Part shown: one piece after another, positions 1,241-41,821 of the stretch | Position numbering within the stretch: the first letter of the stretch is position 1 | Layout of the letters: every line of letters begins with the position of its first letter | NCBI GenBank assembly: GCA_001780275.1 | Contig: MFGB01000007.1 | Span: 66,280-130,279 of the forward strand | DNA: 64,000 bases | Direction: 5' to 3' | From: Candidatus Falkowbacteria bacterium RIFOXYA2_FULL_47_19 | GTDB lineage: Bacteria > Patescibacteriota > Patescibacteriia > Patescibacteriales > UBA12075 | Program-made: the position numbers and the translations under genes | The notes under the pieces: model-generated | What the model saw: only the letters and a program-made list of their open reading frames with translations | Told to the model about the DNA's origin: nothing | Databases searched by the model: none

Positions 1241-4200
1241 CTATAAGTTATACGCCTTGCGCTTTATAAGCGCGCTTGCGCCGGTAAGTCCTCCGACCAT
1301 CATAATGAGGGCCATAAACTCGAAGACGCTGAATCCCGTTTCGGCCAACACTTCTATTTCCCGAACCTCAAGGTCGGCCATGGCCTCGAGCGGTTTATGG
1401 TTATCGGATCTTATCGTGGCGGTATTGACGTATATTTTTTCCGCGGCATCGTCGATGACGTTCGCGAAATAAGTGATTTCCCCGGTTTCGCCGGGTAGAA
1501 GGTCTCCGACCGCCCATTCCCGGGTGGTCGAAGCGGTATCGGCGTAAACGATCCCCTCGGGAAGAATATCCTTGATAATGACGTTAAAAGCGGTCAAATT
1601 GCCGGTATTGGCGTAATTGATCACATATTTGAAATTCTTATCCCCCGGATTATAGAACGATTTCTCGTCTGGAATGACCTTCGTGATAGAAAGTATCGGG
1701 TCCCCTTCTTCGCCTTTGACCTCGACGCAGGCGTCGGTCTTGTATTTGACGGTTTTCTCGGTCTTATCCGATCCTTCTTCGGCCTTGGCCGTAAAGGAGT
1801 ATTCGGTATAAGGCTTTAAGCCGCCGATCGTGGTCGAATGCAGGGTGCTTTCCGTGGTCGTGTCGGTCGAGGTGGCGTCTTTAATATCGTCGGAATCAAG
1901 GCCGTAAACGACCCAGCTGGTTACTGTCTTGTTAGTGCGCCACTCTATTTTAGCCGTATTCTCATCAATGCACTTAGCTTCTATTTCCATGATATCGAGG
2001 AAAACATGGCCTCCGCCGCCTCCGCCGCCGCCCGGCAGTTTGCAATACCGACAACCGTCCGTCTGATCGCTATTAGCATCATCGCACTCTTCGCCGGCAA
2101 CATTAATTATACCGTCGCCGCAGTACGGCCCGCCGCCGCCCTCGGTTGAGCAGGTGGCTGAGCAGCCGTCTCCGGAAACGTTATTGCCGTCATCGCATTG
2201 TTCTCCGGGGGTGTTCCCCAGTATTCTGTCGCCGCACCTGGGCCCTTCCTCGTAATAATTATTAAAATTATAATCAAGGCCATCTTTGCCGGTATACTCA
2301 AGCCAGACATCGAAATAAAGCGGGGTGGTGTTGTGCCAATTGGTCTTTAAGACCTCGTTCACGCGGTAAGCGGCGTCATAAGGGAGACCCTGGAAACAAT
2401 AACGCCCGGTGGAATCGGTCAAAACCGGCGCCGTTACCTTTTGCCAATCGGCGCGGCAATTAACGGCGAAAAGGCCGTCAAGGTCATAGCCGTTCCCATC
2501 CGCATTCTCGTCGTTGTCATCGCTCTCGTCAACTAATTTTATATATTTTGCCCAGACTAATGTGCCTAAATCCAGCGAAGTGTCCAATGTAGCAAGACCG
2601 AGTTCGCGCCAGGTGCCGTCAATTCCTGTCGGCGAGGCGTAAACGCGCGCTTTTTCCGAGGTCGGGGCTCCGTCCGGACTGGTTTCAAAAATTTCAATGT
2701 CAGCGCCGTTGCCGTTTATGACGATATTTTCAAGCTCCAGGATGATCTCGCCGCCAAAACCCAAAGAAACGTAATTCAGGGTTTGGTCCGCTTCAGCTTC
2801 TCCTAAAGCTTTAGCGCTATCGGTATAATCGCTTGCGAGCGGATCAGAGTTACTGTCGGTTCCCTGGGTATAATTTATTACCCGGTCCGCCCAGTTCTCT
2901 CCGGCCGCGCAATCCGCCGCGGTCGACAATTCAATGGTCCAATCCGGAAGACCCTTGGTGTTGGGCGTGGCCGCATTCTTATCCTCGTCCTCGTATTTAT
3001 AGCCGCAGATCATGCCGGAATCTCCGTAAGGCCGGTTATAGAAATAGAGCTCCGCGGTCTCGCCGGCTTTAACCTCTGTTGATGTGGCGCCGTTTTCCGG
3101 GCTTAAAATTATCCACCCCTTGGTCAAAGCTGCTTCAGCGGCGTTATAAATACCGATGGGCAGGTCGGAGAGAGTGACGCAGCCGATCTCGCCGGCCGTC
3201 CGCACGGTATGCGCGCTTTGGTCGGGGTATGTGACCGTAAAGGGCCAATCGGCGACCGGATACTGATCGTCGGCCGTATTCAAATCGCCGTCTGAATCCC
3301 CGATCTTGCAGATTTTCAAATTTCCAACCTCGTGCCGGTTAACAAAATCCTTATCGGTTTCGTTGGTATTCTGTGTTGTGATAAAAATAGTGTAATAATT
3401 ATCCGGATCGATCGGGCTTACCTGCGTCCAACCGCTCTGGTTTTGTTCATAGACGTCATACCGGCCGGTACAAAGATCGTTAAAGGCGTAATTGCCGTCG
3501 TTATCGGTCGTGGTGGTGGCGTAAACGATGCCAAGATTGTCGTTCCTGAGTTCAATTACCCATCCAGACAGGCCGTTACCGGTAAAATAATCTAACTTTC
3601 GTCCGCTTATTAAGGAAGTGCACTGCTCGATGGTTTTACATTCAGTTGAACAAGTAGCTGAACCGGTCGGGCCGTGGTCGCACTCTTCTCCCGGATCTGG
3701 GTTGTAATCGCCGCAGAAAGGCGCTTCGTAATTTAAAAAGACAAAAGGCTGCAGAGCGACTGATCCGAGCGTAAAGCTATATGATCCGTTGGCCGGATAA
3801 GTATTCCGCCAGTGTCCGCTTACCGGCGCTTCAGTAATAGTATAGTCGCCGTAAATAAGGTTATCTACGCTTACGCAGGCATTATCATTCGACGTGTTGA
3901 GGGTCTGCGAATAACTATCCGGTCCGGTAACCGTGAATTCCCAGGCTAAGGGCGTATCAACGCCGCTTTCGTAAGCGCCGATCACACCATTATCGTAGTA
4001 TTTGCATATCGTAAAACCGCCGCGCCGGGTGTTATAGAAATTAATCGTCGCGCCTTGGTCTTCATCGACTATAACCGTGCCTTCGCCGTTTTCCGGGTAA
4101 ACCGGACTCCAGCTCGGATTCGGCATAGTTTCGCTGACCGTGTATTGTTTAGGGTCGAGATCGGTGAAAACGGTACAACCGTTATCTCCGGTCGTCTGGG

Positions 4201-6142
4201 TAGTAGTATGGTCTAAAGTAAAGTTCCAGCCGGGCACTATCGTCTGGTCATCGATGGTTGAGGTTAAACCGTCCACGTCAAACCATTTGCAGACCGTGAG
4301 CCAGCCTTTTTTCGGCGGGATATACTTTAATTTGCAATCCGATTCGCAGGTCCAGTTGCCGGAGAGTCCGGTGGGCATAGCCGGCCAGTCGCATTCTTCG
4401 CCCTCTCCGCCCTGGATTATGCCGTCACCGCAATAAGGACCCCTTAAAGAAATCTCACTGCAGGTGCCGGAACAATAAGTGCAGGTGCTGTCATAATCAG
4501 GAACGCATGGCAGGCCGTTTTGGCCGCCCCGATCGCATACCTCGTTCAGGTCGTAGCCGTTCGGGGTCTGGATCGTGCTGTCTCCGCAATAGGTTAAAGC
4601 GCACTGGTCGGTACAGCCGTCGGTATTATCGCCGTCTTTGCCGTCATCGCAGGCTTCCAGTCCGTTTTGAACGCCGTCGCCGCAATACGGTCCGGTTAAA
4701 GTCGTCGGTTGGCAGGTACTGGAACAATAGGTGCAGGTACTGTTATAATCTGGATCGCAAGGTGTGCCGTTTGTTCCGCCTAAATCGCAAACTTCGTTTA
4801 ATCCATTACCATTAGGGGTCTGGATCGTGCTGTCGCCGCAATAGGTTAAGGTGCACTGGTCGGTACAGCCGTCGGTATTATCGCCGTTCTTGCCGTCATC
4901 GCATTGTTCGTCGCCATTCTTGATACCGTCGCCGCAAACGGGCGGGCACTCGACGGTCGTAGTGGCGGTCGCGCAGATCCAATTATCCGGGTTGCTCTTA
5001 CTGCCGAGCTGTTCGGCCCAAGCGCAGGCTTCGTTTACGATTTCGCTGCCGCAGGCCGTTTCAGTCTTAACTGTGGTCAATATATCAACCGTATAAGACT
5101 CGCCGGGGGCTAATACGTTCTTAACCCAGACGTTATTGCCTGAAGCCGGATTCGGCACGGAAGACACGAAAGAGGTCTTGGTATCATAAAATTCTTTAAG
5201 TTCCACACCGCTCCCCGTGCAGTTAGCCGTGCCGGTGTTGGTCAGGGTTAAATTATAAGTAAGATCGCCTCCCGGCGCGACCGGATCGGGGCTGTCGGTT
5301 TTTACGAGTTCAAGTTTGCATTCCCCCGGTCCGCCGCAGAATGTTATATGACTGATACTGTTAACGTCTTTTGTTACAGTTCCGCTTGTTCCGCCCGGAA
5401 ACTCGGTATAGGTCGTGGCCGCTTTTCTTAAAATCTTGTCTACGGCCGGATTTGAGGTCCAATCGGCTGACTCATTATTGCCGCTAACGGCAGTACTATA
5501 AGCTGGGTCATGTTTATCCATGGCTTCACTCCAAGCACCCGCGTATTCCCATTTAGCCACAGTAAAATAATTCGGTCCGAATTTATCTTCGCACTCGTCT
5601 TTGTCTTCTTGCTTCGTATTCGTAAAGGTGCAGGTTATCTGTGTATCATGAGAAATTTTTAATTTTACCTTACGTTCCGAAAGATATTTTGTGACAGTAA
5701 AATTACTGTTATTACCACTGCATACTATATCGCTTAAATTCCAGCCAGGAACATCCGCCTCGGTAATATAATAATCTCCGGTACTGGTAAAGGGCAGATC
5801 GACACTATTGCCGTCAATCAAGGAAAAATTACCGTTCCAGCCGGTTGTTCCGGTTTTATTTTTAGAAAAAGCAAAAGCCTGGGTGTCACCATCCGGCACA
5901 GTTTGTTTTATAACTGTTATCGTGCCGTGACAAGCCCAAGCCTCTCCGGGCGCAACCATAAAAATACCCCCTAAAGCCATGCCGAAAGACATGTTAAGCA
6001 CAAGGAGGCTCATGGAAAATACGTTGATCGCTTTGTAAATTTTACCTTTTCTGGTGTTTAAAAAATTAGGCGCGTAATGGAACGCGTAATTAGGAGCAAT
6101 CTGCCGGGATGAAAGCAGATTGGGAGAGTATGAATCATGCAT
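1241..6142 (-). CDS. Giant cell-surface protein with LAETG sortase sorting signal (1633 aa)
   Basis: The leader is ..AINVFSMSLLVLNMSFGMALGGIFMVAPGEAWA. The body carries several SdrD-B/Cna-B-like modules, Cys-rich CGDGxxxxxExCDDGxxxxDGC repeats, an FN3-like segment, a poly-Gly run and DUF11-like repeats (NTGNLTA). The C-terminus is LAETGF plus a hydrophobic span plus KRKAYNL. Confidence 0.88.
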   Translation of the reverse strand: MHDSYSPNLLSSRQIAPNYAFHYAPNFLNTRKGKIYKAINVFSMSLLVLNMSFGMALGGIFMVAPGEAWACHGTITVIKQTVPDGDTQAFAFSKNKTGTTGWNGNFSLIDGNSVDLPFTSTGDYYITEADVPGWNLSDIVCSGNNSNFTVTKYLSERKVKLKISHDTQITCTFTNTKQEDKDECEDKFGPNYFTVAKWEYAGAWSEAMDKHDPAYSTAVSGNNESADWTSNPAVDKILRKAATTYTEFPGGTSGTVTKDVNSISHITFCGGPGECKLELVKTDSPDPVAPGGDLTYNLTLTNTGTANCTGSGVELKEFYDTKTSFVSSVPNPASGNNVWVKNVLAPGESYTVDILTTVKTETACGSEIVNEACAWAEQLGSKSNPDNWICATATTTVECPPVCGDGIKNGDEQCDDGKNGDNTDGCTDQCTLTYCGDSTIQTPNGNGLNEVCDLGGTNGTPCDPDYNSTCTYCSSTCQPTTLTGPYCGDGVQNGLEACDDGKDGDNTDGCTDQCALTYCGDSTIQTPNGYDLNEVCDRGGQNGLPCVPDYDSTCTYCSGTCSEISLRGPYCGDGIIQGGEGEECDWPAMPTGLSGNWTCESDCKLKYIPPKKGWLTVCKWFDVDGLTSTIDDQTIVPGWNFTLDHTTTQTTGDNGCTVFTDLDPKQYTVSETMPNPSWSPVYPENGEGTVIVDEDQGATINFYNTRRGGFTICKYYDNGVIGAYESGVDTPLAWEFTVTGPDSYSQTLNTSNDNACVSVDNLIYGDYTITEAPVSGHWRNTYPANGSYSFTLGSVALQPFVFLNYEAPFCGDYNPDPGEECDHGPTGSATCSTECKTIEQCTSLISGRKLDYFTGNGLSGWVIELRNDNLGIVYATTTTDNDGNYAFNDLCTGRYDVYEQNQSGWTQVSPIDPDNYYTIFITTQNTNETDKDFVNRHEVGNLKICKIGDSDGDLNTADDQYPVADWPFTVTYPDQSAHTVRTAGEIGCVTLSDLPIGIYNAAEAALTKGWIILSPENGATSTEVKAGETAELYFYNRPYGDSGMICGYKYEDEDKNAATPNTKGLPDWTIELSTAADCAAGENWADRVINYTQGTDSNSDPLASDYTDSAKALGEAEADQTLNYVSLGFGGEIILELENIVINGNGADIEIFETSPDGAPTSEKARVYASPTGIDGTWRELGLATLDTSLDLGTLVWAKYIKLVDESDDNDENADGNGYDLDGLFAVNCRADWQKVTAPVLTDSTGRYCFQGLPYDAAYRVNEVLKTNWHNTTPLYFDVWLEYTGKDGLDYNFNNYYEEGPRCGDRILGNTPGEQCDDGNNVSGDGCSATCSTEGGGGPYCGDGIINVAGEECDDANSDQTDGCRYCKLPGGGGGGGGHVFLDIMEIEAKCIDENTAKIEWRTNKTVTSWVVYGLDSDDIKDATSTDTTTESTLHSTTIGGLKPYTEYSFTAKAEEGSDKTEKTVKYKTDACVEVKGEEGDPILSITKVIPDEKSFYNPGDKNFKYVINYANTGNLTAFNVIIKDILPEGIVYADTASTTREWAVGDLLPGETGEITYFANVIDDAAEKIYVNTATIRSDNHKPLEAMADLEVREIEVLAETGFSVFEFMALIMMVGGLTGASALIKRKAYNL
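4433..4936 (-). repeat. Tandem 2 x 252-bp (84-aa) Cys-rich module duplication inside the 1633-aa gene
   Basis: CGDGIKNG.. starts at aa 403, CGDGVQNG.. at aa 487 and CGDGIIQG at aa 571. At DNA level gatcgtgctgtc recurs at 4571 and 4823, exactly 252 bp apart, with long near-identical runs. Confidence 0.85.
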
Positions 6143-18749: not shown

Positions 18750-19919
18750 TTAAGCATTCTTCATTCGAAATTTCCCATATTCCTCTTCAATAAAGCTCTT
18801 TATCTCCTCCTTGAATCTCTCTTTTGAAAATTTCATGGCATGCTCCCGAATTGCGGCCGGATTATATTTGGCCGCGTCAAACTTTTTAACGGCCCCGATG
18901 ATCGCCGCCGGCGTCTGCTCGTCAAAAAACTCTCCACTTACGCCCTCTTTGATCGTTTCCGTGGCCCCGCTCTTGCGGTAAGCGATGACCGGCCGGCCGG
19001 ACGCCTGCGCTTCTATGACCGTGATGCCGAAATCCTCGTCCTGGGGGTGCACGAAAGCCTGGCAATCCGCGTAAAGCCGGGCCCGTTCCTCGTTGTTCAC
19101 GCGTCCCAAAAATTCAATATTAGCCGCGGTACCCGCGATCTTTTTGAGCCGGAGCATATCCGGCCCGCTACCGTATATTTTTAATTTCAGGCCCAGTTCC
19201 TTAAAGGCCTCGATCACGATATCCACCCTTTTATAAGGGTTCAGGCGGCAACCGGCGAGAAAATATTTGTCCGCCGGCTTTTCCCGGGCGACATAAAATT
19301 TATCAAGCTCCACCGGCGGATAGATCAGCGTGGAATTCTGGCGGTAATATTTTCTTATCCGGTTTTGAACCGTCCTGGAGTTGGCGATATAAGCGTCCAC
19401 CCGGTCCGCCGCCACCCGGTCCCAGACCCGGATATAATTTAAAACCAGGGAGATCAGTTTCTTGAAATATTTATTGTACTTAAGCTCGCTGATATACTGA
19501 TGCGTATAATCCCAAAGATAACGGGTGGGAGTATGGCAATAGCAGACATGGAGCGTGTCCAGGGGCGTGATCACGCCTTTGGCGAAAGAACTGGAGTCGG
19601 AGAGCACCAGATCGTAAGAGCTTAGATCAAAAAATTCCGTGGCCATGGGCATGAATGGCATATACCACTGGTAATGGCTGACGCCGCCCGGAAGCTTCTG
19701 GATTATAGAGGTGTGTATTTTTTTTCCGGCGTAATATTTGGCCGCGTTTTTTTCTTCGTAGAGCAGGGTATAGATCGGCGCTTCCGGAAAAATTTCCGCG
19801 AAAACCCTGAGTACCGCCTCGGCTCCCCCGTCCTGCGCCAGGTGGTCATGCACTAAAGCGACTTTGATTGGCGATTGCCGATTGGCGATTTTCGAATTAT
19901 TGTCTTGATAATTATTCAT
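18750..19919 (-). CDS. Glycosyltransferase family 4 (GT-B)
   Basis: Motifs seen are VALVHDHLAQDGGAEAV and FVHPQDEDFGITVIEAQASGRPVIAY. The N-terminal 18 aa are unusual and include a heptamer array. Confidence 0.85.
   Translation of the reverse strand: MNNYQDNNSKIANRQSPIKVALVHDHLAQDGGAEAVLRVFAEIFPEAPIYTLLYEEKNAAKYYAGKKIHTSIIQKLPGGVSHYQWYMPFMPMATEFFDLSSYDLVLSDSSSFAKGVITPLDTLHVCYCHTPTRYLWDYTHQYISELKYNKYFKKLISLVLNYIRVWDRVAADRVDAYIANSRTVQNRIRKYYRQNSTLIYPPVELDKFYVAREKPADKYFLAGCRLNPYKRVDIVIEAFKELGLKLKIYGSGPDMLRLKKIAGTAANIEFLGRVNNEERARLYADCQAFVHPQDEDFGITVIEAQASGRPVIAYRKSGATETIKEGVSGEFFDEQTPAAIIGAVKKFDAAKYNPAAIREHAMKFSKERFKEEIKSFIEEEYGKFRMKNA
19867..19894 (-). repeat. Heptamer array (CGNNAAT family, 4 units) in the 5' end of the GT4 gene
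   Basis: The plus strand reads attggcg attgccg attggcg attttcg. The minus strand reads cgaaaat cgccaat cggcaat cgccaat. The array encodes aa 9-18 (SKIANRQSPI). Confidence 0.85.
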
Positions 19920-20055: not shown

Positions 20056-21480
20056 TCACGCCGCTTTTCTTCTCCTGATTACCGCCAACGGAGTCCTGAA
20101 TAAAATAGCCAGATCAAAGAGCAGGGACCAGTTCTCGATATAATAGGTGTCAAGCTTTACCTCTTCTTCGAACGAGAGATCGCTCCGGCCCGAGATCTGG
20201 GCCAGGCCGGTTATGCCGGGTTTAATGGTCATAACCTTCTTGTGGCGCGCCTCATATTGCGTTACCTCCCGCGGCTGGTGCGGACGCGGACCGACCAGGC
20301 TCATATTACCCCAAAAAACGTTAAAGAACTGGGGTAATTCGTCTATGCTCCATCGGCGGATAAACCGCCCCAGGCGCGTAACGCGCGGATCATTAACGAT
20401 CTTATAGACCGGTCCTTCTTTGGAATTCTGTTCGCGGATCAATTCCTTTTCATAGTTTTCCGCCGCGCCGCTGGCGTATTCCGCGCCCGTACAGTACTGG
20501 ATGAGCATGGAGCGGAATTTAAGCAGTTTGAATTTTCGGCCTGCCTGGCCGACTCTTTCGTTCATGTATAAGACCGGCCCCCGGGAATCAAGTTTTACCG
20601 CCAGTGCCGCCAAAAGAAACAAGGGACTGGTTACGGTAATAAGGATAACGGCTCCGATAATATCGAAGATCCGCTTGATTATCCGCCCCCAGCCGTCCAG
20701 GGGCGTTTTTTTGACCTCGACGATCGGGATACCCGCTATTTCCGTCACTTCAGTTTTAAGAACTTTGGCGCCTAAAAGATCGGCGGCGTATTTAAAGGTC
20801 AGGTGATATTCATCGGCGAAATCATAAAGCCTTAGGGTTTCCGCCTTGCTTAAATTTGGATCGCTTTGGATAAGCTCGTCCGCCTCTTTCGCTTTAAGGA
20901 ATTCGACCAATTCGTCCCGCGCCGCCAGATCGAAACTTCTCAGCCTTTTCACGACCTCAAAACCGGAGTCGCGGTTAACGGAAAATTCGTGGATCAGATT
21001 TTCCGTGGTTTTGCTGTTCCCCACCAAAACCACCTTATGCACGCCGATACCGCTCCGGAATAAAGCGCGCTGCAGTAGCCTGACCAGGCTGCGGGCGAAA
21101 CTTATATATATGATCGCCAATATCAACCCGGCTAAAACAATAAAACGGGAGTCGAATAACTCCCGTCTGATGAAAATAAGCACAACAACCAGCATAAAAC
21201 CGGTTGAACAGGCCAGGACCACGCGATAAAGCTCTTTTGCGAGCTTTCTGGCGCTCCTGATATTATAAAGTCCCGCCAAAGCGAAAATTATAAGCCACAA
21301 CGCCGCTACGATCGATACCGCCTTGAGATAACCGTAAAAATCCAGATTAAATATGACCGGACGGTATGTCTGGAAAAATTCGGCATAACGTATGTAGTAA
21401 GCCGAGATCCCCGCTAAAATTATCGCGGCGAAATCCAGTGGCACCAGTAAAAACGAAAAAAAGAGTTCTGAACGCTTCAT
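20056..21480 (-). CDS. Polyprenyl-phosphate sugar phosphotransferase (WbaP/bacterial sugar transferase family)
   Basis: The N-terminal hydrophobic spans are followed by the C-terminal motif DELPQFFNVFWGNMSLVGPRPHQPREV..KPGITGLAQISGR. Confidence 0.88.
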   Translation of the reverse strand: MKRSELFFSFLLVPLDFAAIILAGISAYYIRYAEFFQTYRPVIFNLDFYGYLKAVSIVAALWLIIFALAGLYNIRSARKLAKELYRVVLACSTGFMLVVVLIFIRRELFDSRFIVLAGLILAIIYISFARSLVRLLQRALFRSGIGVHKVVLVGNSKTTENLIHEFSVNRDSGFEVVKRLRSFDLAARDELVEFLKAKEADELIQSDPNLSKAETLRLYDFADEYHLTFKYAADLLGAKVLKTEVTEIAGIPIVEVKKTPLDGWGRIIKRIFDIIGAVILITVTSPLFLLAALAVKLDSRGPVLYMNERVGQAGRKFKLLKFRSMLIQYCTGAEYASGAAENYEKELIREQNSKEGPVYKIVNDPRVTRLGRFIRRWSIDELPQFFNVFWGNMSLVGPRPHQPREVTQYEARHKKVMTIKPGITGLAQISGRSDLSFEEEVKLDTYYIENWSLLFDLAILFRTPLAVIRRRKAA

Positions 21481-21527
21481 AACTCATAACTCATAACTCA
21501 TAACTCATAACTTTGCTTTGTTATGAG
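21481..21527 (-). repeat. (AACTCAT) x4 abutting the wbaP-like start codon, plus complementary arm
   Basis: Four exact 7-mers span 21481-21508, directly after the CAT (ATG) at 21478-21480. ctcataa (21504-21510) pairs with ttatgag (21521-27). Confidence 0.85.
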
Positions 21528-21562
21528 TTTTAAGTTACGAGAAAAAAAATTCTAATAATATC

Positions 21563-22003
21563 GGGGCAAGCTATAAGCCGGATTCTGTATCCGCCGAATC
21601 GGCGGACGATGGCCATTTATCTAGGATCGTTGTTACCAACGACCTCATGCGAACCACTTATCTTCACCCCGAATTCTCGGAATGAGTTTGTTCTTGCTCC
21701 AGGCAGGGTTTACCGCGCATTCCGCTCGCGCGGAAGCGAAGCTTGTAGCCTTTTGACTCGAGGACAAAAGACACCAAGCGACTTTTCACTCTTCCCCCGA
21801 GGAAAGCAAAGCTTTCTTTTCGGGGTAGTATGGTCTCTGTGGCACTTTCCCTAAGGTTTCCCTCGGTCGCCGTTAGCGACTGCCGTTTTGAATTTCAGAT
21901 ACGCCGTCTTCGAAAATCGAAAATCGGCAATCGTCAATCCAAAGAGTCCGGACTTTCCTCTCTGCTTAACTAAAGCTAAGAAGAGCGGCCATCCGCTTAC
22001 CAC
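21563..22003 (-). ncRNA. rnpB: RNase P RNA, bacterial type A
   Basis: The minus strand contains GAGAGGAAAGUCCGGAC (P4 5' strand), GUGCCACAGAGACCA, GGUAAACCCUGCCUGGAGCAAGAACAAA, CUAGAUAAAUGGCCAUCG and ACAGAAUCCGGCUUAU (P4 3' strand). P1 forms as GGUAAGC/GCUUGCC. A P8-like hairpin GUCGC-UAAC-GGCGAC is present. The ends are approximate. Confidence 0.88.
21911..21938. repeat. Heptamer array (CGNNAAT family, 4 units) inside rnpB
   Basis: The array reads cgaaaat cgaaaat cggcaat cgtcaat. This is the same unit family as at 19867 and 26454. Confidence 0.85.
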
Positions 22004-22049
22004 GATATTACTAGAATTTAATGTTCTTGATTTATAGCAACTCTAATTT

Positions 22050-22078
22050 ATATTACCAATATTGATACAAAAAGTCAA
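22050..22078 (-). promoter_or_regulatory. Sigma70-like promoter upstream of rnpB
   Basis: The minus strand reads TTGACT (22073-22078), a 17-nt spacer, then TAATAT (22050-22055). Confidence 0.5.
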
Positions 22079-22160
22079 TTAAAATAGATAAAATCAATAA
22101 TGTTTTTATATTTTTTATTGTTTAACATTAGAGAAATTTTAATTTATTCCGTGGTAGCAC

Positions 22161-22189
22161 TTGACAATATAAAAAATATATGCTATATT
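22161..22189 (+). promoter_or_regulatory. Consensus sigma70-like promoter
   Basis: TTGACA (22161-66), a 17-nt spacer, then TATATT (22184-89). The 12-mer ACTTGACAATAT is identical to the one at 43659. Confidence 0.6.
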
Positions 22190-22195
22190 AATAAA

Positions 22196-22335
22196 TTAGC
22201 GGTGGCGATCGGCCGGTCTTCCGGCCGGTTGCCACCGATATATACAAGCACAACCAGTTTTATATAATAATAAAACATTTCCTGTAAAAACAGCTAAAAA
22301 CCACTCTGAACTATAAAGAGTGGTTTTTAGTTTTA
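22196..22335 (+). ncRNA. Candidate small RNA (~135 nt) between a promoter and a terminator
   Basis: A 17-bp GC-rich hairpin (22200-22237, loop tctt) starts a few nt after the predicted TSS. The terminator is ccactct/agagtgg (22301-22323) plus a T-run. There is no credible ORF and no match to a known RNA family by eye. Confidence 0.3.
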
Positions 22336-22342
22336 ACATGTG

Positions 22343-22371
22343 GTAGAGACGCCCCGCCGGGGCGTCTCTAC
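22343..22371. repeat. 29-nt palindromic element, copy 3
   Basis: GTAGAGACGCCCCGCCGGGGCGTCTCTAC, identical to copy 1. Confidence 0.85.
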
Positions 22372-22381
22372 GCTTGTGGAC

Positions 22382-22410
22382 TTGACAAATCAATGAAAAT
22401 TTGTTAAAGT
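22382..22410 (+). promoter_or_regulatory. Sigma70-like promoter of the 22531-24198 operon
   Basis: TTGACA (22382-87), a 17-nt spacer, then TAAAGT (22405-10). Confidence 0.5.
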
Positions 22411-22530
22411 CAAAATAATTTTCGCTCCTTGAAAATCAATTTTTACGGTGTCTGCCTGAATTAGCGGCGCTATGTCCGGGATGGGCCTGGATGTAAAAAA
22501 CCGTTTGACGGCGGATGCAAGGAGAACACA

Positions 22531-23529: not shown

Positions 23530-23542
23530 GAAGGAGAAAAAG

Positions 23543-23842
23543 ATGGCTACTCTGCGAACTTTCACTCTTCTGGGGGATGACCCTTTGGGTCCGGCAGAAT
23601 GCGCCCAGGGACGATACTGCGTGCTTGTTGAAGCCGAAAACGAAGAAGCGGTCGCGGAATATTTGGGCGGCCGGTTCTCGAAAAGCTTATCGGCGATTTT
23701 CCTGCCCCAATCCCTTTTTAAACCGTTCCTTCCCGGCATCTTAAAGTTCGAAAAAGATCGCTTTTGCGTTTATCTTAAGAGCGGTCTTTTTGAAAGGGGT
23801 GTCCGGATTCAGATGCCGGAAAAAATCAGGCTTAAGGCTTAA
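23543..23842 (+). CDS. Hypothetical small protein (99 aa), stand-alone copy of the shared domain
   Basis: The RBS is GAAGGAG. Motifs are LRTFTLLGDDPLGP..AENEEAVAEYLGGRF..LPQSLFKP..FEKDRFCV. Confidence 0.75.
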   Translation: MATLRTFTLLGDDPLGPAECAQGRYCVLVEAENEEAVAEYLGGRFSKSLSAIFLPQSLFKPFLPGILKFEKDRFCVYLKSGLFERGVRIQMPEKIRLKA

Positions 23843-23868
23843 CTATAACCCATTTTATCGGAGGAAAT

Positions 23869-24198
23869 ATGAAAAAAGCCGCCAAAACCCTGACCACCTT
23901 CATTCTTTCCGGCCACGATCCGTTCGGGCCGGAGTATGAAGACGGCTGGTCCGGATCCGACTGGGGAAATATGCTTATTGACGCCCATGACGAAGAAAGC
24001 GTGGCTAGATATTTCGGCGGCCGGTATTGTCCTGAAAAACAAGCCATAGAATTGCCCAAAAAGTTATTCAAACGGACGACCCATAACGGCCGGAGATGCA
24101 AAAAATTCACGAAAGACGGTCTCGTTGTCTTTTTAAGCGACGATAACGACCGGTTTCGTTCGATCCGAAAAGCGGAAAAGCTTATAGTCAAAGATTAA
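23869..24198 (+). CDS. Hypothetical small protein (109 aa), stand-alone copy of the shared domain
   Basis: The RBS is GGAGG. Motifs are LTTFILSGHDPFGP..AHDEESVARYFGGRY..LPKKLFKR..FTKDGLVV. Confidence 0.75.
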   Translation: MKKAAKTLTTFILSGHDPFGPEYEDGWSGSDWGNMLIDAHDEESVARYFGGRYCPEKQAIELPKKLFKRTTHNGRRCKKFTKDGLVVFLSDDNDRFRSIRKAEKLIVKD

Positions 24199-24203
24199 AA
24201 CAC

Positions 24204-24232
24204 AACGGCTGAAAAATCAGCCGTTTTTTATT
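24204..24232 (+). terminator. Rho-independent terminator of the 3-gene operon
   Basis: Stem aacggctg / cagccgtt, followed by TTTTATTTT. Confidence 0.8.
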
Positions 24233-24307
24233 TTGTCATTCTGGAGCGAAGCCGCGGCGAAGCGATAGAACCCCTTTTGACTGATCGAATAATTTAAAAC
24301 CGTAGCG

Positions 24308-24328
24308 CAATTTCTAATTTCCAATTTC
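24308..24328. repeat. Heptamer array (YAATTTC) x3
   Basis: The array reads caatttc taatttc caatttc. It lies in the gap downstream of the GT2 gene. Confidence 0.7.
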
Positions 24329-24374
24329 GCGCGAGCGCAGCAAGAGTTTAATATCACGAGCCCGCAGGCGAGTT

Positions 24375-25196
24375 TTAACTATGCTTCCTTCTCAGGTAAT
24401 CAACAACCCCTAAAGTCGATCGATTCCCCTTCTCCGGCGGGAACCAAGTCTGGCCTTCTAATAGCGGATGCCCTTCGTGCTTATAAAAGATCTTTTTCTC
24501 TTCCCGTTCCCACATAGCGAAAACCTTATCCGCGCTCCGCATATCTATCTTCTGCTCATAGTCCAATAAAGCCCTGTTCAAATACAAAAACCCCCTCGGG
24601 AACTTCTTGCTTATCCGAAGCGTCAGCTCCCAGTCTTCCCAGAATTTAATATTCTCGTCCCAGCCCCCCAGTTTCATTATCTCTTTGCGCTTATGGCACA
24701 TCGAGCTGGTGTCTATCATTATCCGCCGGTGCCATAAGCGCTTCAAATCGAAATACCGGTCCGCGTTGGTGTATTCATCCCGCACTCTTTTTTCCTCCCC
24801 GTTCTCATCCACCAGGGTCAGACGATAATTTTTCTTGCAGAATACCAGCACGCGGGCCTTATCGCCCGCGAATGCCTTATTCATTAGCTCAAGGAATTCC
24901 GGATACCAGGCGTTATCGGAGTCGAGATAAGCGACAAGCTCTCCCTGCGCTTTCTTAAGGCCGTAATTACGGACCGCGGCCGGTCCGACGTTTTTCTTTA
25001 ATTTATAATAACGGATCCGCGGATCAGTAAACCGCTTTACAAGTTCTTCCGTGGCGTCTTTGGACGCGTCATCGACGATGATCAATTCAAAAAACGGATA
25101 AGTCTGCGCCAAAACAGACTGGATCGCCAGCCATAAAATATAGGCGCGGTCATGCGTCGCCGTTATCACAGAAAATTTAGGCTTAAAGTTTTTCAT
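24375..25196 (-). CDS. Glycosyltransferase family 2
   Basis: The motif is FSVITATHDRAYILWLAIQSVLAQTYPFFELIIVDDASKD. The start was moved to the ATG at 25196, because the track ORF's first 41 codons are AT-rich non-coding-like sequence. Confidence 0.85.
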   Translation of the reverse strand: MKNFKPKFSVITATHDRAYILWLAIQSVLAQTYPFFELIIVDDASKDATEELVKRFTDPRIRYYKLKKNVGPAAVRNYGLKKAQGELVAYLDSDNAWYPEFLELMNKAFAGDKARVLVFCKKNYRLTLVDENGEEKRVRDEYTNADRYFDLKRLWHRRIMIDTSSMCHKRKEIMKLGGWDENIKFWEDWELTLRISKKFPRGFLYLNRALLDYEQKIDMRSADKVFAMWEREEKKIFYKHEGHPLLEGQTWFPPEKGNRSTLGVVDYLRRKHS

Positions 25197-25363
25197 AATA
25201 TTAAGATTTATATTATAATAATAGTTTAAATAAAAATATCTTTTTAAGCAAACCGCGAAACAAACTGTCCGCGTTTCGTTTTTTTTCGTCAGTTTCCGAA
25301 TTCGGAAATGCGAAAGCAACGAATATTCACAAAATTTAACGAAAAAAATTCTTAGGAAAAAAT

Positions 25364-25389
25364 CAAAACCGCCTTAAACGGCGGTTTTT
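25364..25389 (-). terminator. Rho-independent terminator after the protease gene
   Basis: Stem accgcc / ggcggt is flanked by an A-run and a T-run. Confidence 0.7.
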
Positions 25390-26142
25390 CTATGAACATT
25401 TTTGAATATAGGCCGAGACATATTCCCATATCAGGGGTATGGCGTCGCTTAATCTTGCGCAGGTAGCGTATTTTTTGTCGCTACAAAGATTATACGAATT
25501 TAAAATCCCGACCAAAGCCCCCTTGGTCGTGACAATAATTCCGCCGGAGTCTCCCGCCTCCGCGTCAAGCGTCAACGGATAATGGTCGTAATGCTGGCAA
25601 GGCTGGGTGCGGTAACGGCACGATATCTTATTTTCCCGGACAAAGTATTCCGGTATTTGCAGGCCGTAATGCAGATCCACCAGCCGGTGCCACAAAACCC
25701 CGTTTTTCCGAGTCAAACCGCCGTCCCGGCGGCCGAGATAAATTATCGACCGCGGGTTGTCGCCGCCCGTCTCCGGACAAGCGAAATAAAACTTGAAGCA
25801 ATGATAAGCGCTCCCTTCCGGCAAAAATAATTTGCATAAAGCGATATCGCGAAGCGGGTCAAGGGCGCATATCTGGAAACCGGAAAATATCCGGCCGTCG
25901 GCCAATCTTGTTTTTAAGATACCCGAAGAAAAATAAACGCAGTGGGCGCTGGTCAAAAAATAACCGTCCTGGGTTAAAAGCAGGCCGCTGCCCAGATGGC
26001 TACCGCCGGCATAAAGTATTTCTATGATCGCATTGGCGATATAAGCCTCCGAAAACTCGGCAGTGGACCTCTGAAAACATCCGAAGTTGTTCAAAAAACC
26101 GGAGAGCGACTGAGGCGAACCCGATGGCTGATCGGCGGACAT
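25390..26142 (-). CDS. Trypsin-like (S1 family) serine protease, no signal peptide
   Basis: The catalytic triad motifs are FLTSAHC (His), RDIALCKL (Asp) and GDSGG (Ser). The N-terminus MSADQPSGSPQSLSGF is not hydrophobic. Confidence 0.72.
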   Translation of the reverse strand: MSADQPSGSPQSLSGFLNNFGCFQRSTAEFSEAYIANAIIEILYAGGSHLGSGLLLTQDGYFLTSAHCVYFSSGILKTRLADGRIFSGFQICALDPLRDIALCKLFLPEGSAYHCFKFYFACPETGGDNPRSIIYLGRRDGGLTRKNGVLWHRLVDLHYGLQIPEYFVRENKISCRYRTQPCQHYDHYPLTLDAEAGDSGGIIVTTKGALVGILNSYNLCSDKKYATCARLSDAIPLIWEYVSAYIQKCS

Positions 26143-26200
26143 TATTCCCTCCTAATAATATTTTAAAGTTCAATTATTTTTATCTTTTAAAAGACGAAAA

Positions 26201-27346
26201 CTATAATAATCCGGCTTTAATACCATAACGTATCTTTCGCGTTAAATCAAGATAAAACTCCAAATTATTGAGCGTAGCCAGCCTTTGCCCGAGAGGCTCA
26301 CGGATCTTGAATAAATAATGAAGATAAGCCCTGGATAAATTCCTGAGTTCCGATAATTTACTCTCCGGATTGATCGGTTTAAAATCTTTCGCGAATTTCG
26401 CGTTAGTAATATTCTCGGTTTTATAAAAATTATTTTTTGATATATCTGTCGGCCGCAAATCGGCAATCGGCAATCGCCAATCGAAAATCCGACCGTGCCT
26501 TCCTTCCCGCGTCGGTATCACGCAGTCGAGCATATCCACCCCGCGCTTTACCGCCTCGACGATATTCTCGGGATAGCCGACGCCCATAAGATAGCGCGGC
26601 TTGTCGGCCGGCATTTCCGGCACGAGGTAATCCAAAACCGCATACATCTCGGCCGCCGATTCCCCGACCGACAGGCCGCCGATGTTGTAGCCGTCCCAGC
26701 CGATATCCTTTAAATCTCTCAGGCTCTTCAGCCGCAACTCCTTATCTAAACCTCCCTGAATAACGCAGTGGAGCAATGGCTTTTTCCCTTTTAATTTATC
26801 ATGATATTTTTTCGTTTTCCGGGCCCAGGCAGTGGTCAGATCCACTGATCGTTCGATATATTTCCGTTCCGCCGGCAGAGCCACGCATTCGTCAAGGCAA
26901 ACAGCGATATCGACGCCCAGGTCCGTCTGGATCTTCAGGGATCTTTCCGGTGTTAAATAGTATTCCCGACCGTCGACATAAGACTTAAAACGCACTCCGT
27001 CGGCTGTCAGTTTTACCAGGTTTTCGCCAGATCTTTTTTTCGTACCGGCCAAAGAAAAAACCTGAAAACCGCCCGAGTCGGTAAGAATGGGCTTGTCCCA
27101 ATCCATGAATTCATGAAGTCCGCCCGCTTTCTTGATAAGCTTCTCGCCGGGCCTGAGCATCAAATGATAAGTGTTGGATAAAAGTATCTGCGCCTTCAAA
27201 CGCCGCATCTCTCCGGTCGCCACCTGCTTGACCGCGCCCTGAGTCGCGACCGGCATGAAAAACGGAGTCTTGATTTTACCGTGGGCTGTATGCAAAATAC
27301 CCGACCTGGCCTTGCTGATTTTTGAATATTTGGTGACTTTAAACAT
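26201..27346 (-). CDS. tgt: tRNA-guanine transglycosylase (queuine tRNA-ribosyltransferase)
   Basis: Motifs seen are TPFFMPVATQGAVK, LSNTYHLMLRPG, LTDSGGFQVFSL, MLDCVIPTR and SRAYLHYL. The start was moved to the ATG at 27346 (MFKVTKYSK..). Confidence 0.9.
   Translation of the reverse strand: MFKVTKYSKISKARSGILHTAHGKIKTPFFMPVATQGAVKQVATGEMRRLKAQILLSNTYHLMLRPGEKLIKKAGGLHEFMDWDKPILTDSGGFQVFSLAGTKKRSGENLVKLTADGVRFKSYVDGREYYLTPERSLKIQTDLGVDIAVCLDECVALPAERKYIERSVDLTTAWARKTKKYHDKLKGKKPLLHCVIQGGLDKELRLKSLRDLKDIGWDGYNIGGLSVGESAAEMYAVLDYLVPEMPADKPRYLMGVGYPENIVEAVKRGVDMLDCVIPTREGRHGRIFDWRLPIADLRPTDISKNNFYKTENITNAKFAKDFKPINPESKLSELRNLSRAYLHYLFKIREPLGQRLATLNNLEFYLDLTRKIRYGIKAGLL
26454..26488. repeat. Heptamer array (CGNNAAT family, 5 units) inside tgt
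   Basis: The array reads cgcaaat cggcaat cggcaat cgccaat cgaaaat. It is read on the minus strand as ..IFDWRLPIADLRP.. Confidence 0.85.
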
Positions 27347-27351
27347 ACTTT

Positions 27352-27459
27352 CAAGGACACAAGATACAAGGATACAAAAAAATCCCAATATCCAAACGGT
27401 TTGATATTTGGAATTTGTGATTTGAAACTTGTTTGTATCCTTTTATCTTGTGTCTTGTG
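27352..27459 (-). terminator. ~100-nt compound hairpin filling the gap between 27466..29583 and tgt
   Basis: The outer arms cacaagatacaaggatacaaa (27358-78) and tttgtatccttttatcttgtg (27432-52) pair with one mismatch. The imperfect inner hairpin is followed by a T7 run on the minus strand, so it looks like a terminator. The arms show 7-nt periodicity. Confidence 0.6.
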
Positions 27460-27465
27460 TTTTGA

Positions 27466-33539: not shown

Positions 33540-35189
33540 TTATTTTTTAAAAACTCTCTGTCCCTCCGGCGTATCCTCGACCGTCCAACCCAATTTTTCT
33601 ATCTCCTTGCGCAGACGATCGGATTCCGCCCAATTTTTCGCCATCCGTGCCAATACCCTCGCCTTAAGAAGCTTTTCTATTTCTTCGTCCAATACTTCGC
33701 CCTCGTTCATTAATAAAGTCGTTGATGAAGAAGTTGATGAAGAAGTTGATGAAGAAGTTGATGAAGAAGTTGATGAAGAAGTTGATGAAGAAGTTGATGA
33801 AGAAGTTGATGAAGAAGTTGATGAAGAAGTTGATGAAGAAGTTGATGAAGAAGTTGATGAAGAAGTTGATGAAGTATCTAGTTCTTTTTTTATGGATTTT
33901 AATTTGGATAAATTCAAACCCAACACCTTGTCAAAGTCCATAGCTAACGCTAATTTTTCATCATCTTTCAAATCGGATTTTAAAACCTCCTGTAACACCG
34001 CCATGGCCATTGGCGTATTTAGATCATCGTTTATAGCCCGTAAAAATTTATCCTTATACCGGTCAAAATTCACGCATTTATCATCTTCAAACTCTAAACT
34101 TTTTTCAAACATTCCATTTGATTCTTTTTCGCCTGCCGGAACACAGCTCAATTCTCTTATTTGATTATTAAGGTGTTCCAATCCGTCTTTGGCCGCCTTG
34201 AGCGAATCAAAGGTAAAGTTCATGTGTTTGCCGTAATTCGTCTGCATGCAGAGGAAACGAAAGGCCAAAGGTTCGAATCCTTTCTCTTCAATATCCCTTA
34301 AGGTATAAAAATTCTTGAATCTCTTGCTCATTTTTACGCCGTCGACAAGCAGATACTCGTTATGCAACCAATAATTGACCGGCGTTTCCGTATCGTATCC
34401 GATTACGCTCTGCGCGATCTCGTTCTCATGGTGCGGAAATTTAAGGTCGATGCCGCCGGTATGGATATCGAAAGGCATCCCCAATGCGGATTGGCCCATG
34501 GCCGAGCATTCAATGTGCCAGCCCGGACGGCCCGGCAGTCGCTCGCCGTTCAGTTCAAAATCCCAGTACGGCTCGCCGTCCTTGCACCCTTTCCAAAGGA
34601 CAAAATCCTGGACATTTTCTTTTTCATATTCATCAGCATCAACCCTGGCCCCGGCCCTGAATCCGTCCATGTCTATATTGGTAAGCTTCCCATATTTATG
34701 GTCCGCGGCATATTTGGCGACATTAAAATACACCGAACCGTCTTTGCCGTAAGCGTAGCCGGCATCAACTATCGATTTGGTCAAAACCTGCATTTTTTCG
34801 ACATATTCCCGATCGGCGGCATGCGGCACTATATCGGGCTTGTTTATATTCAATTTTCGCGTATCATCCCAAAAAATCCGTTCATATTCGCCGGTAAACC
34901 TGTTTAAGGCTTCCATCGGCTCCAGGTCCGGGTATTTCAACTTTGAATCCCTGATCGTTTTATCGTCAACATCGGTAATGTTCATCACCCATTTTACAGC
35001 CGTCTGCCCATAATTATACCTTAAGGTTCTATCCAGGATATCGGAAAATATATAAGCCCGTAAATTTCCGATATGAGCGAAATTATAAACCGTCGGGCCG
35101 CAGGTATAAAGACCGATTTTGGCCGGATCGATCGGCATGAACTTTTCTTTTTTCCGCGTAAGCGTATTGTATAAAAAAATATCGTCCAT
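33540..35189 (-). CDS. cysS: Cysteinyl-tRNA synthetase
   Basis: Motifs are YTCGPTVYNFAHIGNLRAY (HIGH) and KMSKR (VKMSKRFKNF). The start was moved to the ATG at 35189 (MDDIFLYNT..). That ATG lies 1 nt after the stop of the upstream ORF, so the track's 59-aa extension overlaps that ORF. Confidence 0.9.
   Translation of the reverse strand: MDDIFLYNTLTRKKEKFMPIDPAKIGLYTCGPTVYNFAHIGNLRAYIFSDILDRTLRYNYGQTAVKWVMNITDVDDKTIRDSKLKYPDLEPMEALNRFTGEYERIFWDDTRKLNINKPDIVPHAADREYVEKMQVLTKSIVDAGYAYGKDGSVYFNVAKYAADHKYGKLTNIDMDGFRAGARVDADEYEKENVQDFVLWKGCKDGEPYWDFELNGERLPGRPGWHIECSAMGQSALGMPFDIHTGGIDLKFPHHENEIAQSVIGYDTETPVNYWLHNEYLLVDGVKMSKRFKNFYTLRDIEEKGFEPLAFRFLCMQTNYGKHMNFTFDSLKAAKDGLEHLNNQIRELSCVPAGEKESNGMFEKSLEFEDDKCVNFDRYKDKFLRAINDDLNTPMAMAVLQEVLKSDLKDDEKLALAMDFDKVLGLNLSKLKSIKKELDTSSTSSSTSSSTSSSTSSSTSSSTSSSTSSSTSSSTSSSTSSSTSSSTSSSTTLLMNEGEVLDEEIEKLLKARVLARMAKNWAESDRLRKEIEKLGWTVEDTPEGQRVFKK
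33721..33874 (-). repeat. 12-bp microsatellite (GTTGATGAAGAA) x ~12.8 inside cysS, encoding (TSSS)n
   Basis: There are 12 perfect units plus a 10-nt partial unit. The minus-strand reading gives ..DTSSTSSSTSSS...TSSSTTLLMNEGE. Confidence 0.95.
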
Positions 35190-35190
35190 A

Positions 35191-35478
35191 TTATACTTTG
35201 GTCTTAATATCAACACCGCTGAAGCCGTACAGGCCATGGATCGTTTCGCAGGCGGAGGCATAGGCTTTTTGCCCGTTATCGGCCCGCTGGCCGGTACTGC
35301 GCCACTCTTCCTCCCCTTCTTTTTTAACTTCGACCAGGCCGGTTTTGGAATTCCACTGGGTTTCAAAAAAGATCTCCTTGCCCCGGATCATCGCTTTGAT
35401 TTTCTCCAAAGGCCATTTACTCCCGCTTTCCGCCTGATTTTTCCTTATGGCGCTCATTAGCTCGCCGTATTCTTTCAT
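35191..35478 (-). CDS. Hypothetical protein (95 aa)
   Basis: This is a track ORF. Its TAA lies 1 nt from the cysS ATG, which suggests coupling. No family was recognised. Confidence 0.5.
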   Translation of the reverse strand: MKEYGELMSAIRKNQAESGSKWPLEKIKAMIRGKEIFFETQWNSKTGLVEVKKEGEEEWRSTGQRADNGQKAYASACETIHGLYGFSGVDIKTKV

Positions 35479-40745: not shown

Positions 40746-41732
40746 TCATATTTTCTCCGCCACCCTCATCTTGGCGCTCCTGGCCCTGGGATTCGCTGCG
40801 ACCTCTTCGGCCGCCGGTAGAACCGTTTTTTTCGTAATTATCTTTAAAACCGCCTTATGGCCGCATTGGCAGACAGGTATCTCCGCCGGACAGACGCAAT
40901 TCCGGCTTTCGGTTTTAAAGAAATTTTTCACTATCCTGTCTTCAAGGCTGTGGTAGGAAACGACGGCTATCCGCCCGCCCCTTTTCAGGATCCGAACCGC
41001 CTGCGGCAAGGCGTTTTCCAAATTACCCAGTTCATCGTTGGTGGCGATCCTTAACGCCTGAAAAGCGCGCGTGGCGAAATGGATCTTTTTGTTATGCCTA
41101 TAAACCGCCGGTACGGATCCGCCGATTATGTTCACGAGTTCTCCGGTACTTTTTATTTCTCCCTCTTTTCTCGCCTGAACGATGGCCCGCGCTATTCTTC
41201 CCGCGAATCTTTCCTCCCCGTATTCCCGCAATATTCTCGCCAATTCCGACGCAGGATAACGATTAACGATATATTCTGTCGTCCGTTTTGCGTTTTCCGT
41301 TCTCTGGCCAAAGGCCATGTCTAGCGGAGCATCCAGTTGAAAAGAGAATCCCCGGCGCCGGTCTTCGAGTTGAGCTGATGATAGACCCAGATCAAATACA
41401 ATGCCGGAAAAAACAGGTACCTCCGGAATCTCGGAATCCGCCCGAGCGGCAATCTCGGCTGACTCGCCCGCCGCCATGATCTTGTGTAAGTCTTTAAAAT
41501 TTCCATGTATGATCTTTATGTTATTGTTTTTTTCAAATCTTTTCCGCGCGTGTTCGATGGCCAGGTTGTCCAGGTCGAAAGCCGCCACCAACCCCTTCTT
41601 GCCCACGCGCTCGGCCAACGCGGCCGTATATCCCCCCCCGCCCAAGGTACAATCCATGAATTTTTCTCCGGGTTTCGGATCAAGATACTCTAACACCTCC
41701 CCCAACATGACCGGTACGTGAATATATTTCAT
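40746..41732 (-). CDS. rsmH: 16S rRNA (cytosine1402-N4)-methyltransferase
   Basis: Motifs are HVPVMLGEVLEYL, DCTLGGGGY and SYHSLEDRIVK. The start was moved to the ATG at 41732. Confidence 0.92.
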   Translation of the reverse strand: MKYIHVPVMLGEVLEYLDPKPGEKFMDCTLGGGGYTAALAERVGKKGLVAAFDLDNLAIEHARKRFEKNNNIKIIHGNFKDLHKIMAAGESAEIAARADSEIPEVPVFSGIVFDLGLSSAQLEDRRRGFSFQLDAPLDMAFGQRTENAKRTTEYIVNRYPASELARILREYGEERFAGRIARAIVQARKEGEIKSTGELVNIIGGSVPAVYRHNKKIHFATRAFQALRIATNDELGNLENALPQAVRILKRGGRIAVVSYHSLEDRIVKNFFKTESRNCVCPAEIPVCQCGHKAVLKIITKKTVLPAAEEVAANPRARSAKMRVAEKI

Positions 41733-41821
41733 ACGACATGGAGCACGGAGCATGAAGCACTAACGGTTTGCGCGTCGCGTGTCGCATGCTTCATGTTCCA
41801 TGCGCTAAAGCACTAAAGCGC
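41731..41821. repeat. 7-nt-periodic array upstream of rsmH with partly complementary halves
   Basis: The first half reads atggagc acggagc atgaagc actaacg. The second half reads tgcttca tgttcca tgcgcta. atgaagc pairs with gcttcat. Confidence 0.65.

Follow-up and report, generated by a model that had tools for sequence, protein, structure and literature searches.

How does an array of 7-nucleotide (nt) units, a length that is not a multiple of three, come to be translated inside a conserved housekeeping enzyme? The question is posed by tgt in a 64,000-nt stretch of Candidatus Falkowbacteria bacterium RIFOXYA2_FULL_47_19 (assembly GCA_001780275.1, contig MFGB01000007.1, positions 66,280 to 130,279), hereafter the window, where the gene occupies 26201..27346 on the minus strand. 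On the plus strand, positions 26454-26488 comprise five CGNNAAT units (CGCAAAT, CGGCAAT, CGGCAAT, CGCCAAT, and CGAAAAT), in exact agreement with an earlier note made from the letters of this DNA. Read in the coding direction on the minus strand, the units are ATTTTCG, ATTGGCG, ATTGCCG, ATTGCCG, and ATTTGCG; they encode I287-R298 and translate as IFDWRLPIADLR. The minus-strand open reading frame (ORF) runs through the array as ...EGRHGRIFDWRLPIADLRPTDISKNNFYKTENITNAKF..., bearing out the note's claim that the array is read in frame within tgt. Tandem Repeats Finder called positions 26458-26483 as an array of period 7 (3.7 copies, 94% matches, score 45). The three-unit pattern CGNNAATCGNNAATCGNNAAT, built on CGNNAAT, matched the window 7 times, against 0.01 expected from dinucleotide-preserving shuffles, and the two-unit pattern matched 10 times against 0.64 expected. 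These matches were confined to three loci, 19866-19894, 21910-21938, and 26454-26488. With shuffle expectations so far under the observed matches, chance origin was rejected, and the tgt array is real and non-random. Its 7-nt units lie head to tail in at least three copies and beyond chance, as in heptanucleotide simple-sequence repeats (SSRs) and in arrays of the short tandemly repeated repetitive (STRR) kind; it is a direct repeat without inverted symmetry, which sets it apart from palindromic mobile elements such as Rickettsia palindromic elements (RPEs) or repetitive extragenic palindromic (REP) sequences.

The host protein is a bona fide bacterial Tgt by profile score, catalytic residues, and predicted fold. 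It is 381 amino acids (aa) long from the ATG, or 395 aa from an in-frame TTG upstream at 27388, and scored 418.2 bits against the TIGR00430 equivalog (cutoff 306.75); precomputed annotation gave PF01702 for every homologue. Using phmmer, the product aligned with Tgt of Escherichia coli (10fb) and Zymomonas mobilis at E about 1e-94 (4e-96 to 10fb) and 42-43% identity. Residues D90, D152, C154, E229, and D274 aligned with the catalytic and substrate residues D102, D156, C158, E235, and D280 of the Z. mobilis enzyme, and all five positions were invariant across an alignment of 70 homologues. The AlphaFold2 model (predicted local distance difference test score, pLDDT, 87.9; predicted template modeling score, pTM, 0.89) has the expected TIM barrel and C-terminal subdomain, and Foldseek matched it to the Z. 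mobilis structures 1q2r_A and 1ozm with template modeling (TM) scores of 0.87-0.90 and a root mean square deviation of about 2 Å. An identical protein, OGF27577.1, belongs to Candidatus Falkowbacteria bacterium RIFOXYB2_FULL_47_14, and the sequence was recovered on 7 contigs from several sources.

The array falls in a variable loop, D289-N312 (26411..26482, minus strand), of 24 aa. The canonical loop has 7 residues, both in E. coli Tgt and in every bacterial-type Tgt that we fetched from DPANN archaea. When phmmer aligned the product with the solved structures, 17 residues at the array had no counterpart in Tgt of E. coli (10fb) or Z. mobilis (1ozm); the gap lies between GRIF(DW) and NITNAKF, near Z. 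mobilis residues 297-301. The earlier note had put roughly 12-15 extra residues at this point; the place of the insertion was right and its size slightly underestimated. The AlphaFold2 model positions the insert at the tip of a β-hairpin in the C-terminal subdomain, between predicted strands 286-290 and 308-312.

The loop and the array are not the same thing. About 9 of the 17 extra residues belong to an old, clade-wide extension that includes a conserved N/K-x-F-Y-x-T motif on the C-terminal side of the loop, and array units 1-2 (ATTTTCG ATTGGCG, read as I-F-D-W-R) cover the family's conserved Phe and Trp codons. The shortest close relatives (for example, P0012 and L024) have loops of ~16 residues, and the window loop is ~8 residues longer, by what the alignment suggests to be LPIADLRP, L292-P299 (26450..26473, minus strand), or 24 nt and ~3 heptamer units. 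The earlier note had equated the array with the extra loop, and the array is indeed part of the loop beyond canonical Tgt, but only about three units are truly additional. Since three units span 21 nt, which is seven codons, little of the frame restoration that the note invoked would have been needed.

To place the loop among its relatives, we compared the window protein with its 120 closest homologues, all from Patescibacteria and 56-100% identical (121 sequences in total). Every homologue had the loop extended at the same site, by a few to more than 50 residues beyond E. coli, and the shortest loops had about 12 residues and the longest more than 60. The hairpin loop is by far the most length-variable segment of Tgt in this set. 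Seven consecutive residues that exactly translate a perfect (7-mer)x3 were present in the loop of 18 of the 121 proteins and in 0 of 42,252 windows outside the loop. Among 18 distinct long loops, the DNA was most strongly periodic at a lag of 7 in 11 (binomial P about 1.6e-7). Other insertion-prone sites of Tgt (72-75, 101-106, 183-190, and 215-218) held sporadic inserts, and none of these sites had exact heptamer-periodic peptides. Between relatives the array sequence diverges, and the flanking codons remain alignable. Sibling genomes lacking the insert, for which the earlier note had suggested a check, were not found; the closest relatives all carry an array or another element at this position.

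Individual loci show what fills the loop. The closest, L029 (DAIUBD010000053.1), is 99.95% identical to the window over 6088 bp, and one of its 3 differences lies in the array at 26470 (minus strand), where C in the window is G in L029, turning ATTGCCG into ATTGGCG and Pro293 into Ala. The Tgt of L030 is 85% identical, and its loop, GG (AATATCC)x4 AATAAT, has the same length as that of the window, 24 aa, with an unrelated sequence; it carries CTTTTTTCCTGGCG where window units 1-2 cover the Phe and Trp codons. L001 (protein 84% identical) has an L030-type array broken by an 18-nt hairpin. Among more distant Patescibacteria, L004, L006, L008, L038, L041, L042, L048, and L049 each have a heptamer array of their own, mostly of the form CAAA/T+NNN, and L005, L026, and L040 instead have in-frame, GC-rich perfect hairpins of -37 to -45 kcal/mol. 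The hairpins in the relatives' Tgt loops lie at L005:2474-2548, L026:121-237, L040:3892-3984, and L001:10865-10954, and a search of these four loci for second copies of the loop palindromes found none. The hairpin tip is thus lengthened in all Patescibacteria relatives and, in many independent lineages, filled by heptamer arrays or GC-rich hairpins. As the earlier note had supposed, this is not a conserved peptide that merely happens to be periodic, given that relatives of 84-85% identity have an unrelated peptide and other heptamer units. The opposite case that the note had allowed for, with no insertion and a conserved peptide, was rejected because the loop is hypervariable across homologues. 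Strain-level evidence consists of the one unit-variant single-nucleotide polymorphism (SNP) between the window and L029, beside wholesale difference between species and no copy-number variant among available assemblies, so between-strain instability of the array is weakly documented.

The comparison with L030 comes with a complication. Relative to window positions 21727-27302, the L030 contig (ENA ERZ27254852 k141_839444) is 100% identical from about 26350 down to 21727, and above about 26350 its sliding-identity profile falls to only about 50-80%. P0123 is the reciprocal form, joining a window-type N-terminus and array to the C-terminus of the other lineage. The switch point between these two Falkowbacteria lineages is 60-100 nt from the tgt array, and the mosaics are either true recombinants or assembly chimeras. 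We considered whether L030 might be a sibling (96% identical) whose array had been swapped, implying very fast turnover, and rejected this since sliding identity shows L030 to be mosaic. The window and L030 arrays consequently differ at the level of species, with nucleotide identity of about 80%, and not at that of strains.

The same protein departs from classical Tgt in a second respect. The earlier note had used the strand preceding the Zn site as a landmark, which does not hold for this protein, as all four ligands of the CxCxxC...H site are substituted (S..L..L...N). In alignments with E. coli Tgt, S329, L331, and L334 (26345..26362, minus strand) stand in place of the cysteines and N360 (26267-26269, minus strand) in place of the histidine. 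Judged by these residues, the window protein is a Zn-less variant of Tgt. The ligands are likewise substituted in all 120 closest homologues; the site is kept in some other Patescibacteria (L008, L026, L037, L040, L041, and L049) and intact in the bacterial-type Tgt copies of DPANN archaea. Those copies, encoded by Micrarchaeota, Woesearchaeota, Iainarchaeia, and Nanoarchaeota (loci L009, L011-L013, and L015-L023, plus metagenome loci L053-L076), are 31-40% identical to the window Tgt. We also observed a second insertion, at Tgt residues 98-110 (window about 27017-27055), which adds 8 residues relative to the E. coli and Z. mobilis enzymes and reads AGTKKRSGENLV; the model predicts disorder there (pLDDT about 54-56), and heptamer periodicity is absent.

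We then examined period-7 arrays beyond tgt. The window holds 9, where 0.3 would be expected, an enrichment of about 30-fold, and periods 5, 8, 10, and 11 were at or under expectation. The arrays occupy genic and intergenic DNA alike: two ORFs, one RNA gene, one start codon, and several spacers. A second member of the CG..AAT family lies at 19866..19894 (minus strand) in a GT4 glycosyltransferase gene (18750..19919), where it encodes SKIANRQSPI, codons 9-18 of an N-terminal extension; the L001 orthologue is without the array. The third member is in the RNase P RNA gene at 21558..22004 (minus strand), a bacterial class A RNA scoring 175 bits against Rfam RF00010 (gathering score 100). Here, the RNA has 56 nt where the RF00010 model has 5, and the array (21910..21938, minus strand) supplies the 5' arm of an additional hairpin that follows the GGAAAGUCCGG segment. 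This hairpin of about 35-50 nt, within 21865-21945, consists partly of the heptamers AUUGACG, AUUGCCG, AUUUUCG, and AUUUUCG. In L001, this part of the RNA is about 35 nt shorter, with only a small 17-nt insert.

The remaining arrays have other units. A perfect (GTTATGA)x5 at 21475..21514 (minus strand) ends in the start codon of a Bac_transf sugar-transferase gene (20056..21480) and yields five ATGs at 7-nt spacing; at this start, L001 has a different heptamer-like tract, GTCTGTT GTCTGCC GTCTTCG. A TCTTGTG array (27440..27464) occupies the intergenic spacer directly upstream of tgt and is not conserved in L001 or L030, a CAATTTC array (24308..24329) lies in another spacer, and a further period-7 array lies at 41284-41304 within ORF 40746..41753. 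L001 thus differs from the window at the glycosyltransferase, start-codon, 24308, and 27440 array sites. Other Falkowbacteria-like loci are likewise enriched for period-7 arrays. In related Falkowbacteria, genes for IleRS-like class I aminoacyl-tRNA synthetases contain in-frame heptamer arrays (L027:1663-5115, L006:11152-14238, and L004:3844-6960), up to five in one gene; the five in L027 have the units AGTATTT, AGAAATC, CAGATTT, CGCATAA, and ATTACGA. Two repeats of other periods were also seen in the window. One is a perfect 12-nt tandem repeat of 12.8 copies at 33721-33874, coding for (TSSS)n in a minus-strand ORF (33540..35366) that resembles cysteinyl-tRNA synthetase by its HIGN and KMSKR motifs, which would make it another in-frame repeat in an essential enzyme. 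The other is a 252-nt tandem duplication (4460-4941; 1.9 copies, 80% identity) inside a 1633-aa minus-strand ORF at 1241..6142.

From these data, the tgt array is probably a heptanucleotide simple-sequence array of the type known as STRR in cyanobacteria and as the heptanucleotide class of long SSRs, one of a genome-wide population, that became fixed in a permissive loop. Arrays of this kind would arise and change through replication slippage or unequal exchange, with the native ...TTTTC..TGGCG (Phe-x-Trp-Arg) codons as a possible seed for the one in tgt. The survivors would be those with stop-free units and a net length change in multiples of three, as with three units and seven codons. The resulting peptide would be tolerated, and not selected for a function of its own, because the hairpin tip is presumably solvent-exposed and away from the active site.

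Several observations weigh against this account. Slippage enters it as a supposition because no copy-number polymorphism was seen: there were no copy-number variants of the tgt array among the 7 contigs with the identical protein or the four cluster members, and duplicate loci from different samples (L004/L043, L006/L046, and L008/L047) had identical loops with no length change. The perfect tract in the tgt array is only ~2.4 units long. Eight of the nine period-7 arrays are clustered in 19.8-27.5 kb, and all come from one 64-kb stretch of genome. The three CG..AAT arrays of the window share a unit set in which variation is confined to unit positions 3-4, and independent local slippage does not account for that sharing. 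Most arrays of other lineages have the common CAAA/T+NNN form with its A-rich core, a hint of a sequence-specific process, of copying between loci, or of selection. Finally, the loop has a pLDDT of about 86 in the AlphaFold2 model and may be structured, as opposed to a floppy neutral spacer.

The shared unit set leads to the strongest alternative, which we regard as possible though distinctly less likely. A dispersed CG..AAT family would be actively propagated, by ectopic gene conversion, recombination, or a templated process, and would have overwritten the native tgt loop codons, with selection retaining only versions that encode Phe288 and Trp290. The three arrays lie within 7 kb and share the variants CGAAAAT, CGGCAAT, and CGCCAAT, and the family is absent from the other fetched loci save copies of the window lineage. 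The equal length of the window and L030 loops, despite their unrelated sequences, looks like replacement and not like gradual change, and the mosaic junctions adjoin the array. However, the three arrays differ in unit order, and none simply duplicates another; we saw neither terminal repeats nor target-site duplications nor associated genes; and other genomes show many units each, not one family. The confinement of variation to two positions, which involves about four independent mutational steps, is not statistically significant (P about 0.1, an estimate), and we dropped it as evidence.

In a further reading, which we hold to be unlikely, Falkowbacteria and related Patescibacteria would have an active, sequence-biased process that writes heptamer arrays, commonly of the CAAA/T+NNN form and, within one genome, in families such as CG..AAT. 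If true, such a process, and not slippage, would repeatedly renew the peptide at the Tgt hairpin tip, as well as surface sites of other essential enzymes (IleRS) and of RNase P RNA, and would act throughout the phylum as a generator of new protein and RNA sequence.

It is also unlikely that selection maintains the loop peptide for a function, such as stabilizing the C-terminal subdomain after Zn loss or contacting tRNA or a partner protein, with the periodicity left as a historical trace. This would suit the universal extension in Patescibacteria Tgt with its conserved FY.T motif, the short helical turns that accompany the pLDDT of about 86 in the modeled insert, and the sub-clades whose loop peptides stay alike despite moderate divergence (ITNxxLxITN and RKIPMxxxCAT are examples). 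The array-derived LPIADLRP, on the other hand, is unconserved even at 85% overall identity, loop length varies as widely as given above, and some lineages have GC-rich hairpin DNA at the same site. Nor does the loop compensate for Zn loss, because the Zn-keeping lineages L008, L041, and L049 carry heptamer loops too.

A contingency tract is very improbable. If a single 7-nt unit were gained or lost, the frame would change and Tgt would be switched off, without its last ~90 residues. The unit length and the placement of one of the three strain SNPs within the array are compatible with phase variation, as are the longer perfect tracts of relatives, such as (AATATCC)x4 in L030. There is also a precedent, in that heptanucleotide SSRs drive phase variation in Haemophilus (PMC8262952, PMC12721329). 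Phase-variable contingency loci have a long perfect tract of varying length, and the tgt array has neither the perfection, its units being degenerate, nor any length variant among the cluster members, the contigs with the identical protein, or the duplicate loci elsewhere. Moreover, tgt serves housekeeping and is neither a surface gene nor a restriction-modification gene, and arrays of the same kind are found in RNase P RNA and IleRS, whose switching off would kill the cell. Lastly, a chance resemblance or an assembly or sequencing artifact can practically be set aside: the chimera-like L030 and P0123 leave metagenome assemblies near the site open to some suspicion, but the same sequence was independently recovered in NCBI, JGI, ENA, and Logan assemblies, shuffles predicted 0.01 matches where 7 were observed, and the frame is open with the protein at full length.

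Taken singly, the tgt array is ordinary repeat DNA. The pattern in which lineages throughout a phylum reuse one enzyme loop, and arrays also occur in RNase P RNA and aminoacyl-tRNA synthetases, is apparently undescribed, and in the literature that we searched there was no description of heptamer or SSR arrays in Patescibacteria (the Candidate Phyla Radiation, CPR) or of a Zn-less CPR Tgt. It means that non-triplet simple-sequence repeats can sit in frame in the housekeeping enzymes, and in a ribozyme, of ultra-small and supposedly streamlined CPR genomes, and that a single Tgt hairpin tip is a recurrent, tolerated site across many lineages. Heptamer arrays and GC-rich hairpins at this tip form a natural loop-replacement series in which to study how repeat DNA becomes protein and how much insertion the fold tolerates. 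The work also flags a large Tgt clade without the structural Zn site. In practice, loops of this kind will mislead sequence alignment, gene calling, and metagenome assembly, and the mosaic contigs indeed break beside the array.

Among known systems, the nearest are the STRR sequences of cyanobacteria, which like the window arrays are tandem 7-nt units with several unit families per genome, dispersed in genic and intergenic DNA. Heptamers of this class reportedly lie inside the RNase P RNA genes of heterocyst-forming cyanobacteria (Vioque 1997, NAR 25:3471). In the window, too, the RNase P RNA gene tolerates such an array, in the form of an additional helix. The cyanobacterial insertion is located in P12, whereas that of the window follows the 5' strand of P4/P5. 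The window arrays differ further in phylum (Patescibacteria, Falkowbacteria), in their units (ATTGCCG, GTTATGA, and others), and in that one of them is translated inside a conserved enzyme.

The RPEs, reported by Ogata and colleagues in 2000, reportedly lie in frame in protein-coding and RNA genes. These mobile palindromes measure about 100-150 nt and have a consensus sequence. The resemblance lies in selfish or neutral repeat DNA being tolerated as an extra surface peptide of conserved proteins, and L005, L026, and L040 have GC-rich palindromes in this very Tgt loop. The window element, in contrast, is a 35-nt tandem array without a palindrome.

Canonical Tgt, as seen in the E. coli (10fb) and Z. 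mobilis (1q2r, 1ozm) structures, shares its fold, catalytic Asp residues, and substrate pocket with the window protein, which differs in the 17 residues added to the hairpin, the 8-residue insert at 100-110, and the substitution of the four Zn ligands.

Prokaryotic SSRs provide a wider frame. In survey work, heptanucleotides are given as the most abundant class of long SSRs in repeat-rich prokaryotes and the commonest non-triplet class (Mrazek and colleagues, via PMC4679880), polymerase slippage is the proposed cause of long heptanucleotide SSRs, and units in multiples of three are expected within coding regions (PMC4679880). Long SSRs match the window in the over-representation of period 7 among non-triplet repeats. 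The expectation for coding regions does not hold here, where housekeeping genes carry non-triplet arrays in frame and one protein site has them in lineage after lineage. The same source describes TAACTGA heptamer direct repeats in marine Beggiatoaceae, some cyanobacteria, and Bacteroidetes, in sets of 2-6 copies that often stand just before start codons and occasionally within ORFs (PMC4679880). The arrays at 21475-21514 and in the spacer upstream of tgt are similar to these. TAACTGA is, however, a single dominant unit across taxa and mostly intergenic, whereas the window and its relatives have many lineage-specific units that are repeatedly in frame.

The tandem repeats of Borgs offer a counterpart for the making of new peptide. 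Perfect tandem repeats are pervasive in these archaeal extrachromosomal elements, where they give rise to new intrinsically disordered regions of proteins (PMC9879509). Both systems have rapidly evolving, locally arising tandem repeats that add peptide to proteins. Borg units within genes are reported to be multiples of three. Those of the window are 7 nt, and its arrays are short and degenerate.

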